From: Minisyncoccota bacterium
Lineage (GTDB): Bacteria; Patescibacteriota; Minisyncoccia; Phycocordibacterales; UBA9973
NCBI GenBank assembly: GCA_028718635.1
Contig: JAQULK010000001.1
Location: 543,834 to 607,833, forward strand
Length of the DNA: 64,000 nt
Direction of reading: 5' to 3'
The notes under the pieces were generated by a model, which saw only the letters and a list, made by a program, of their open reading frames with translations, was not told where the DNA came from and ran no database searches. The position numbers and the translations under genes are program-made. Within the stretch, counting starts at the first letter, position 1; each line of letters opens with the position of its first letter. Positions 37,922 through 39,459 of this stretch are shown piece by piece.

Positions 37922-38038
37922 AATTTTTTAAAAAATTTATCGTATCATTTTGACTCCCTAATCATATCATTTTGATACGATTAGGGCAATACCCAACATT
38001 ATTTGACTTTAAAAATTATTCGTGTAATATACATATTA

Positions 38039-38116
38039 ATGAAATCAAATATGAGTTTTAACAATTATTTCTTCTTTTTTAGCTTTTGGAGCCAAGGTTC
38101 CAGAGTTCATTTCTGA
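38039..38116 (+). CDS. Candidate Phe-rich leader peptide (MKSNMSFNNYFFFFSFWSQGSRVHF) upstream of pheA
   Basis: Translated by hand; 7 Phe in 25 codons with the run FFFFSF, followed by a terminator hairpin 45 nt later. No strong SD. Confidence 0.4.
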   Translation: MKSNMSFNNYFFFFSFWSQGSRVHF

Positions 38117-38158
38117 TATTGTTAAAATCATTCTAAAACAAACATAACAATACAAGAA

Positions 38159-38197
38159 ACGAGCCCTGGAACGGGGCTCGTTTTTCTTTTTTGTTTA
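38159..38197 (+). terminator. Attenuator/terminator hairpin (CGAGCCC-TGGAAC-GGGGCTCG + TTTTTCTTTTTTGTTT)
   Basis: Stem plus T-tract lying between the Phe leader peptide and the pheA SD (AAGGAAGG). Confidence 0.55.
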
Positions 38198-38280
38198 AGA
38201 GAAAAAAGTAGCACATCGTCAGAAGAATAAAAACGGTTGCCCTTAGGTGACTGAAAAAACTAGAAAGGAAGGAAAAAGTC

Positions 38281-39156
38281 ATGGAAAGAATTACTTATCT
38301 TGGCCCCCAAGGAGCAACATTCTCAGAGCTAGCTTACATAGAGCTGGCCAGGTTGTTTGGAGCTCCTAGTCTTAATGTGGGAGAAATAGTTCTGGCTGGA
38401 AAAAACCAAGACGTTTTGCCTTTGGTTTTCAACCATGGTGGCTATGGAGCTATAGCGATGGAAACAGATGCTGAGGGTAGAGTTGACGGACCTGTCAACA
38501 CTTTCATTCAGCTTCTTAGAAATTGCGAAACTTCAGAGGATTGCCCGATAACAGTTATTGGGGCAATCAAAATGCCTATTTCTTTTGCCCTTATGGTTAG
38601 ACCAGGAGTGCAAAAGAAAGACATTAGGACTGTTGTCGCACACCCAAAAGCATTAGGTGCATGCAGAAACATGGTCAACTGTTTAGTCAGTGACCAAGAA
38701 AAGATCATCGAGTCGGACAGTAATGGCTTAGCCGCCGAAGATGTTGCAACTAAACAAAAATTTTCTCAGGCTGCAGCACTTGGCCCAAGAGTCGCCGCAG
38801 ACAGGTATGGACTTCAGATTTTAGAAGAAGCTTGTGAAGATAGTCCTGCGACTACCACTTTTTTTCTTTTAGGACCTAAATCTCGCCCACAAGTGATGCA
38901 GGAGGTAAATAGGTCTTTATTAGTATTTCGGGTTAAACACGAACCTGGGTCACTTGTAAAGACACTTCTACCTTTCTCGGACGCAGGATTAAACTTGCGT
39001 CAAATTCATTCACTTTATACTGGCAAAGGTCAATATGACTTCGCAGTCGAGATTGAATGTGGAAAGGACCAAGAAGAGGACTTAGTACGTGCTATGTATG
39101 GATCAATGAGACACATGATGTGTTATGTTCTTTTCGGCCCTTTCCCTGTTGTTTAA
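38281..39156 (+). CDS. pheA: Prephenate dehydratase (PDT + ACT domains)
   Basis: ITYLGPQGATFSELA N-terminus and an ACT-domain region LLVFRVKHEPGSLVKTLLPFSDAGLNLRQIHS. Codon usage is GC-richer than the surroundings. Confidence 0.65.
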   Translation: MERITYLGPQGATFSELAYIELARLFGAPSLNVGEIVLAGKNQDVLPLVFNHGGYGAIAMETDAEGRVDGPVNTFIQLLRNCETSEDCPITVIGAIKMPISFALMVRPGVQKKDIRTVVAHPKALGACRNMVNCLVSDQEKIIESDSNGLAAEDVATKQKFSQAAALGPRVAADRYGLQILEEACEDSPATTTFFLLGPKSRPQVMQEVNRSLLVFRVKHEPGSLVKTLLPFSDAGLNLRQIHSLYTGKGQYDFAVEIECGKDQEEDLVRAMYGSMRHMMCYVLFGPFPVV

Positions 39157-39421
39157 GTTCAATGTTTAAAAAAAAACAGCTACCTGTGGTGGCTGTAAAA
39201 ACAACACTAATTAAAGGAAGGAAGTAAAAAGAAATGAAAAAGAACCGTATTTTTCTCCAATGCCTACGTCAGTACCGACAGTACCGTTTGAGCAGGTAAG
39301 TCTGCTTATACGACATATGGAAGCCCAAAAGGGCAAAAATGAAGAAGGAATGGAAAAAATAAAGAAAGAAGCTGAAGAAGCTGGCTTCAAAATAGAATAA
39401 AGGTATCGTTTTTATCAACTT

Positions 39422-39459
39422 ATGCCGCCCTCACTATCTCAGGGCGGCATTTCTTTTTA
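39422..39459 (+). terminator. Rho-independent terminator (ATGCCGCCCT...AGGGCGGCAT + TTCTTTTT)
   Basis: 10-bp perfect stem and T-tract downstream of pheA and two mini-ORFs. Confidence 0.65.

Follow-up and report, generated by a model that had tools for sequence, protein, structure and literature searches.

A probable phenylalanine leader-peptide attenuator upstream of a stand-alone prephenate dehydratase-family gene in a Paceibacteria bacterium

Main finding

In this study, we explored by computational analysis the region upstream of a gene of the prephenate dehydratase (PDT) family in a 64-kb window, i.e. the whole stretch of DNA under analysis, from a bacterium of the Paceibacteria (Candidate Phyla Radiation (CPR)/Patescibacteria). 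We consider it highly probable that this region, comprising a Phe-rich short open reading frame (ORF) and an intrinsic terminator, is a leader-peptide transcription attenuator, which senses charged tRNA-Phe and controls the stand-alone PDT-family gene. The proposal builds on observed sequence elements, on mutually exclusive structures and their energies, on the geometry of these structures relative to the leader ORF and on the conservation of the whole architecture across related loci.

In the proposed mechanism, transcription would begin at the leader ATG (38039) or 1 nt before it, as judged from promoter spacing, and with such a start the ribosome would be expected to load on the 5' end of the RNA without a Shine-Dalgarno (SD) sequence. 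When Phe-tRNA is plentiful, the ribosome would reach the TGA at 38114-38116 and cover segment 2 (38097-38114), upon which the terminator (38155-38185 and its T-tract) would form and transcription would end short of the PDT gene. Under scarcity of Phe-tRNA, the ribosome would instead stall at 38069-38086 and cover segment 1; segment 2, left exposed, would pair with the 5' arm of the terminator (38097-38172), so that RNA polymerase would read through into the PDT gene, the message of which would be translated from its own strong SD.

Sequence elements of the leader

The elements of the leader, all on the forward strand, are as follows.

38003-38008 (+): -35 hexamer TTGACT, from a promoter scan; invariant in the four window-type relatives
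38025-38030 (+): -10 hexamer TAATAT, from a promoter scan; 8 nt 5' of the leader ATG
38039-38116 (+): leader ORF of 25 codons plus TGA, MKSNMSFNNYFFFFSFWSQGSRVHF*, with 7 Phe, from reading of the sequence
38069-38086 (+): Phe codon run TTC TTC TTT TTT AGC TTT (FFFFSF), read directly
38081-38107 (+): hairpin 1:2 (anti-antiterminator, possible pause hairpin), 11 bp, -10.9 kcal/mol
38097-38124 with 38145-38172 (+): antiterminator 2:3, 24 bp, -26.3 kcal/mol; spans the stop codon of the leader and the 5' arm of the terminator
38155-38185 (+): stem of the intrinsic terminator 3:4, 14 bp, G+C-rich, -21.1 kcal/mol, with the 12-nt T-tract TTTTTCTTTTTT at 38181-38192
38266-38273 (+): SD of the PDT gene, AGGAAGGA, anti-SD duplex -7.8 kcal/mol
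38281-39156 (+): PDT-family gene, 291 aa, the putatively regulated gene; Pfam PDT and an ACT-like C-terminus

Most of this arrangement had been anticipated in the original prediction, made from the window sequence alone. The mini-ORF with its seven Phe residues, including FFFFSF, was confirmed by reading of the sequence from 37600 to 40400, as was an SD followed by a gene that matches Pfam PDT at 89 bits. The strong terminator expected 5' of the pheA-type gene is present as well, its stem shifted to 38155-38185 and its T-tract extending to 38192. Of the candidate promoter, both hexamers were found, yet the spacer between them measures 16 nt and not the 17 nt first given. The alternative pairing at the leader stop codon turned out stronger than claimed when the structure was predicted (24 bp, -26.3 kcal/mol), and ribosome-mediated Phe attenuation, proposed on these grounds, is strongly supported by the folding, the simulation of ribosome states and the 62 related loci described below.

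Mutually exclusive predicted folds and geometry of the proposed switch

Folding of the whole leader with RNAfold yielded hairpin 1:2 together with the terminator, with z = -4.3 against shuffled sequences, and the RNA cut before the terminator 3' arm folded into antiterminator 2:3. By folding, hairpins 1:2, 2:3 and 3:4 are mutually exclusive. Their placement relative to the ORF is the classical one, in that segment 1 starts directly 3' of the Phe codons and segment 2 ends on the leader stop codon. Since hairpin 1:2 begins right after the Phe codons, its 5' arm would lie under a ribosome that stalls on them.

The effect of ribosome position was simulated by masking in 47 distinct leaders, with shuffled segment 2 sequences as controls. 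On average over these leaders, the terminator 5' arm was paired with upstream sequence to 75% when the ribosome was placed at the Phe codons and to 6% when it was placed at the stop codon; for the window leader, the same masking gave 86% in the stalled state and 0% at the stop codon. Compared to the controls, the energy of the stalled state had a mean z of -3.05, lay below -2 in 34 of the 47 leaders and reached -7.1 in the window.

Conservation of the leader in related loci

Related loci, designated here by L and a number, comprised 26 loci from GTDB species representatives, 57 loci from metagenomes and 6 obtained by exact-protein look-up; an alignment-based query recovered loci in genome contigs, where a single-protein query gave none. 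Distinct PDT loci were counted as assessable if 250 nt or more of sequence was available 5' of the PDT gene, which left 76 loci from metagenome-assembled genomes (MAGs) of Parcubacteria and from metagenomes. In 62 of these 76, the PDT gene is preceded by a Phe-rich mini-ORF with a G+C hairpin and a T-tract behind it, so that the Phe run is indeed conserved in relatives. The leaders fall into at least four subfamilies of divergent sequence with one common layout, and the Phe run is the only peptide feature common to all of them:

(V/M)IHTNSFFGFFFKNSENRRVN: subfamily A, the majority
MKITTNKSAFTFWAFSFAKGRLV: a further subfamily
MTALRNVFAFAAFNSANRRLV: a further subfamily
VNKNxQxNxxFFFSxxxRELIFAL: a further subfamily
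MKSNMSFNNYFFFFSFWSQGSRVHF: window-type subfamily, also in L087, L089 and L090

In the common layout, segment 1, which lies just 3' of the Phe run, is similar to the 5' arm and loop of the terminator, and segment 2, just 5' of the stop codon, is complementary both to segment 1 and to the terminator 5' arm. A terminator was detected in 47 of 48 distinct leaders examined, and that of the window is kept in L027, L087, L089 and L090. In subfamily A, the terminator and a small TCGG-loop-CCGA hairpin are 93% paired, with compensatory changes at 8 pairs and a score that none of 500 shuffles matched; the antiterminator, held in a fixed register, is 80% paired, compared to 33-49% in slid registers.

Between close relatives, nucleotide identity amounts to 84-87% from promoter to T-tract, 65-73% in the PDT gene and 53-69% in the spacer. 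Clustering of 491 neighbouring ORFs from 90 loci revealed no conserved operon partner of the PDT gene; the leader together with the PDT gene is therefore the conserved module.

Individual loci display variations on this module. In L028 and L032, genes without a Pfam match lie between leader and PDT gene. L032 additionally carries, behind the terminator of a first leader that is truncated by the contig end, another Phe mini-ORF (MTTQKLKFSFFFSTPLSVEV), which has a hairpin of its own (L032:60-215) and precedes an unannotatable gene of 281 aa, itself located 5' of the PDT gene; L032 may thus be a tandem attenuator. Upstream of the Phe leader and PDT gene of L029, a phenylalanyl-tRNA synthetase (PheRS)-like protein of 378 aa is encoded in divergent orientation (L029:1100-2236, reverse strand), the ORF cluster of which recurs in two other loci. 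Its domains are limited to the class-II core (tRNA-synt_2d) and to FDX-ACB for anticodon binding, which we take to be the architecture of monomeric mitochondrial PheRS. Between this gene and the leader lies a G+C-rich stretch of about 250 nt without an ORF (L029:2300-2565, forward strand), which ends in a strong terminator and has no Rfam match at the gathering threshold.

Coding evidence and start codon

Coding potential was assessed on 21 subfamily A leaders of equal length (21 codons). Their start codon occupies one alignment column, with 11 ATG and 10 GTG, and the stop codon (18 TAG, 3 TAA), the frame and the length of 21 codons are all retained. Codon 8 is Phe in 21 of 21 leaders (11 TTC, 10 TTT), and over all Phe codons of these 21 leaders TTC and TTT are used 45:45. 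Within codons 2-13, entropy is highest at the third position (1.25 vs 0.82 and 0.93), and codons 14-21 display an RNA-like constraint, with an entropy of 0.66 at the third and 1.08 at the second position. For the window leader, the internal ATG at 38051, which would yield a peptide of 21 aa like that of most relatives, was considered as a start and rejected: the codon is ATA in L087, L089 and L090, leaving 38039 as the conserved start.

Probable leaderless initiation

Among 48 distinct leaders, a TAnnnT motif ends 6 nt 5' of the start codon in 25 and 7 nt in 14, so that 39 of 48 carry it at these two offsets, compared to 0 of 48 PDT start codons. In 42 of the 48, the -10 box and the start codon are 6-8 nt apart, and in 46 a TTGaca/TTGCa element precedes the -10 box by 16-18 nt; in the window and its three closest relatives the spacing between -10 box and start is 8 nt. 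With this promoter spacing, transcription is expected to start at the A of the leader ATG or 1 nt before it. An SD-like 4-mer, in turn, occurs upstream of just 4 of the 48 leaders, and the anti-SD duplex at the window leader is calculated at +0.6 kcal/mol, compared to -7.8 kcal/mol at the PDT gene. The leader ORF is thus most likely translated from a leaderless mRNA. The weak SD had been put forward as a caveat to the leader ORF; with a -10 box at 6-8 nt in 42 of 48 leaders and a probable leaderless start, this caveat would fall away.

Similar spacing was observed at other genes of the window. In 11 of 48 genes, exactly 6 nt separate the start codon from the end of a TAnnnT motif, mostly in the form of the extended -10 element TGnTAnAAT, with a background of about 2 per offset. 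Examples with this spacing are the genes at 6460, 7971-8966 (-), 14676-15995 (-), 16018-17148 (-), 20225-21280 (-), 22217-22849 (-), 34314-35663 (-) and 41659. An SD-like motif was found in only 7 of 48 window genes, and first genes in this genome seem as a rule to have leaderless mRNAs.

The putatively regulated enzyme and its pathway context

The protein encoded downstream of the leader scores 89.2 bits against Pfam PDT (cutoff 25.2, E=3.7e-25) and aligns to the solved PDTs 6vh5 and 3mwb (E=6e-24), with a weak ACT domain match (16.2 bits) below the cutoff of 27. It falls under every PDT equivalog cutoff of NCBIfam, the best score being 126.6 against a cutoff of 219. Its clade in Parcubacteria carries TTF at the position of the TRF motif in solved PDTs and HS.Y at the place of ESRP, motifs which we take to be catalytic (TRF) and Phe-binding in the ACT domain (ESRP). 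The protein is 100% identical to one from a Candidatus Pacebacteria MAG, and homologues with 45-77% identity occur in MAGs of Parcubacteria, Paceibacteria, Azambacteria, Nomurabacteria and Taylorbacteria as well as in metagenomes.

Searches with Pfam and NCBIfam revealed no other aromatic-pathway gene in the 64-kb window, the rest of which is housekeeping typical of such genomes (aminoacyl-tRNA synthetases, murG, ftsW, mraY, riboflavin genes, dnaB and dnaK). An EPSP_synthase-family match at 10945-12453 (+) was rejected as an aromatic gene, being MurA (NCBIfam subfamily, 309 bits); this MurA carries an N-terminal HTH_3 (XRE-type) DNA-binding domain, an unusual fusion.

A link to the aromatic pathway emerges from related loci. 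In L027, with a PDT of 77% identity, a class-I 3-deoxy-D-arabino-heptulosonate 7-phosphate (DAHP) synthase follows the PDT gene (L027:1002-2170) and ends at a terminator that matches the one at 39421-39455 in the window. Alignment to L027 defines the corresponding tail of the window operon:

39157-39455 (+): operon tail with a hairpin, an SD and ATG (39234), about 170 nt of short ORFs and the terminator at 39421-39455

The window thus retains the post-PDT hairpin, the SD and the ATG at 39234, with about 170 nt in place of the 1,059-nt DAHP-synthase gene. The stretch 39157-39455 is probably what remains of a DAHP-synthase gene; a tblastn search with the L027 DAHP synthase as query found no protein remnant in the window. 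The syntenic position in L090 lacks a PDT gene and has the same leader (MRSNINFNNFFFFFSFRNQGSRVHF) and terminator directly 5' of a DAHP synthase (L090:5770-7056), an arrangement that connects the leader with aromatic amino-acid supply without recourse to PDT. One syntenic locus is therefore found in three states: (leader)-PDT-DAHP synthase in L027, leader-PDT in the window and in L089, and leader-DAHP synthase in L090. Judged from this distribution, the likeliest history appears to be that attenuator, PDT and DAHP synthase once formed a single operon, from which one gene or the other was lost.

Alternative explanations and opposing evidence

In the full-length fold, the Phe-codon tract UUCUUCUUUUUU (38069-38083) pairs with the purine-rich ribosome-binding site of the PDT gene (38264-38278). 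This pairing could constitute an additional translational layer or generic complementarity, and it is the basis of the first rival explanation, in which control is mainly translational: the tract would act as an anti-SD, a stalled ribosome would free the SD, and the terminator would be secondary. We regard this as improbable, since Phe codons are complementary to any purine-rich SD, and a G+C-rich stem with a 12-nt T-tract, together with an antiterminator of conserved geometry, is the hallmark of transcription termination. Pairing of tract and SD could moreover be added to attenuation rather than replace it.

A structured cis-regulatory RNA, be it a riboswitch, a T-box-like element or a protein-binding leader, in which the Phe ORF is an incidental reading of U-rich RNA, would account for the high nucleotide conservation of the leader and for the RNA-like constraint on codons 14-21 of subfamily A. 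It would have to coexist with ATG and GTG alternating at one position, with a frame, stop codon and 21-codon length that are kept, and with Phe codons that vary only synonymously. The subfamilies are furthermore unrelated in nucleotides and alike only in the Phe run and the three-hairpin layout, and no Rfam family, T-box included, reaches threshold in the window or in 10 representative loci. We therefore consider this explanation very unlikely. That the mini-ORF is an independent gene for a small hydrophobic protein with its own terminator, or a chance ORF, unrelated to PDT control is scarcely credible: although three Phe-rich mini-ORFs occur in the window with about 1.6 expected, the other two lie inside opposite-strand genes, ORF and terminator travel with PDT through unconserved neighbourhoods (90 loci) and are found at 62 of 76 loci, outside the Phe run the peptides differ between subfamilies, and shuffled controls fall far short of the antiterminator pairing in strength.

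Several points nevertheless weigh against attenuation by a Phe leader peptide. The start of transcription, the translation of the leader and read-through in response to Phe are each deduced from sequence. Taken alone, a Phe-rich mini-ORF is not beyond chance in an AT-rich window (three observed, about 1.6 expected, the other two within genes on the opposite strand); the significance of the leader lies in its conjunction with promoter, terminator, alternative pairing and conservation in relatives. A leader was not detected in 14 of the 76 assessable loci, and two leaders contain just two Phe codons. The latter, at L006:2846-2961 (MTHANNFFSLTLISANRRAI) and L044:2834-2947 (MTLLPNVFALAAFNSANRRLV), are clear nhmmer homologues of the leader family and may be decaying or retuned attenuators. 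In subfamily A, covariation of the fixed-register antiterminator did not exceed that of shuffles, and per-sequence folding against shuffles was therefore used instead. Among the four window-type sequences, 97.9% of antiterminator cells are paired, with a lone compensatory change (C-G to U-A in L089). If no ribosome is present, the minimum-energy fold of the window leader cut before the terminator 3' arm is 2:3 rather than 1:2, so that termination in the untranslated state would hinge on folding kinetics. Lastly, the enzyme is a divergent PDT, and its substrate, prephenate or arogenate, is putative because of TTF in place of TRF and of scores under the NCBIfam cutoffs.

Comparison with known systems

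Attenuation by a leader peptide at charged tRNA-Phe recalls the classical attenuators of Proteobacteria. It is general knowledge that the trp, his, leu, thr and pheL attenuators combine a short ORF, holding a run of codons for the end product, with exclusive 1:2, 2:3 and 3:4 hairpins and an intrinsic terminator before a biosynthetic gene. These features, which are also summarised in PMC4007540, are shared by the window leader, and with E. coli pheL-pheA it additionally has a pheA-type regulated gene in common. In contrast to pheL-pheA, to which no homology is detectable, the leader ORF of the window is without an SD and probably leaderless, the host belongs to the Patescibacteria, and the enzyme is a divergent PDT without a chorismate mutase domain. 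With 20.9 bits (E=1.6) against a gathering score of 55, the window is not a member of the Rfam family Phe_leader (RF01859); the likeness to pheL-pheA that was initially noted consequently stands as analogy and not as homology.

Leaderless leader peptides are known from other bacteria, with 14 predicted attenuators of this kind in Deinococcus deserti (PMC4007540) and the ilvBNC leader of Corynebacterium glutamicum (PMC11857589). In common with these, the leaders described here have a predicted start at or 1 nt before AUG/GUG, a peptide rich in the cognate residue and a three-hairpin attenuator, which in those organisms stands before amino-acid biosynthesis or tRNA-synthetase genes. They differ in phylum and in sequence, and the family of the window is Phe-specific and tied to stand-alone PDT or DAHP synthase. 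Furthermore, the leaderless start is supported by differential RNA sequencing in D. deserti (PMC4007540), whereas in the window family it follows from promoter spacing.

T-box riboswitches likewise sense tRNA charging and switch between terminator and antiterminator before amino-acid-related genes. A specifier loop and a T-box sequence were, however, not identified in the window leader, where the signal would be carried by a conserved translatable ORF. No match to the T-box family (RF00230) was obtained up to E=10 in 37850-39550, nor at the gathering score in the window and 10 related loci, and more generally no Rfam (15) family reached its gathering threshold in the window or in the 10 representative related loci.

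Novelty and implications

From the comparison of sequences, the leaders would represent a new, widely conserved family of a known attenuation mechanism. In a full-text search, no publication came up in which leader peptides or attenuators are connected with Patescibacteria, CPR or Parcubacteria; given the incomplete coverage of the search, this is absence of evidence only.

We tentatively raise the possibility, to which we give somewhat less than even weight, that the leaderless Phe attenuator is an ancestral, clade-wide module of Parcubacteria for stand-alone genes of the aromatic pathway, i.e. PDT and the syntenic DAHP synthase. If so, bacteria with reduced genomes would monitor tRNA-Phe charging by means of tight coupling of transcription and translation, and Phe would still be made or completed, possibly from host-derived prephenate or arogenate. 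The leaders would then provide a regulatory readout of which amino acids such symbionts make themselves. To our knowledge, CPR organisms are generally regarded as unable to make most amino acids.

Leader-peptide attenuation requires a ribosome close behind RNA polymerase. A conserved Phe attenuator in Parcubacteria would therefore point to close coupling of transcription and translation, and it would also point to leaderless initiation in this largely uncultivated radiation. In terms of annotation by regulation, the leader would tie a divergent stand-alone PDT-like enzyme, and DAHP synthase in relatives, to phenylalanine supply. The leader family could enter annotation resources for RNAs and leader peptides and could mark residual aromatic amino-acid metabolism in CPR genomes.

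Origin of the locus and neighbouring genes

The segment at 37.9-40.1 kb had been described as compositionally distinct and as acquired horizontally together with its regulatory logic, neither of which could be upheld. Its GC content is 0.371 and that of the whole window 0.361; among 2.2-kb windows, 30% reach or exceed the value of the segment. The PDT gene, with a GC content of 0.433, is the top of 47 genes (z = 2.07); as its GC at third codon positions (GC3) is ordinary (z-score 0.65), the excess does not reside in synonymous positions. L089 and L090 share the flank with Asx-tRNA synthetase and PRPP synthetase on one side, and L090 also shares TrpR-like, TrpRS, DnaB and RecR on the other. Recent horizontal acquisition was rejected on composition and synteny: the synteny is shared, GC3 is unremarkable, and the pairing of leader and PDT is widespread in Parcubacteria. 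The canonical SD, described as unlike that of the neighbours, does contrast with them, but it fails as a sign of transfer, since many neighbouring genes are leaderless and an SD is required where a long 5' leader precedes the gene.

On its 5' side, the leader is flanked by the following gene.

36857-37921 (-): Fic-domain gene, 5' neighbour, on the strand opposite to the leader

Because of this orientation, the leader terminator is not attributable to the Fic-domain gene. The gene, which encodes an N-terminal winged-helix-like region, stands between PRPP synthetase and the Phe leader. As L089 and L090 are syntenic but lack it at this position, the gene may have been inserted here. On the other side, the zinc-finger ORF at 39582-39764 (-), of 60 aa with a CxxC...CxxC arrangement, had been labelled YgiT-type, a label that found no YgiT/MqsA match in Pfam or NCBIfam. 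The ORF is kept beside the terminator in L027 and matches Lar_restr_allev weakly (E=0.005).

Further along the window, an 84-nt tRNA at 9657-9740 (+) overlaps the start of the ORF 9685-10317, which contains a LAGLIDADG_3 homing-endonuclease domain. At 40116-41436 (-), a gene for a small repressor, of the TrpR family or YerC-like, lies directly 3' of trpS and in the same orientation; the two apparently form one operon. L090 contains two TrpR-family genes (295-711 and 9386-10625).

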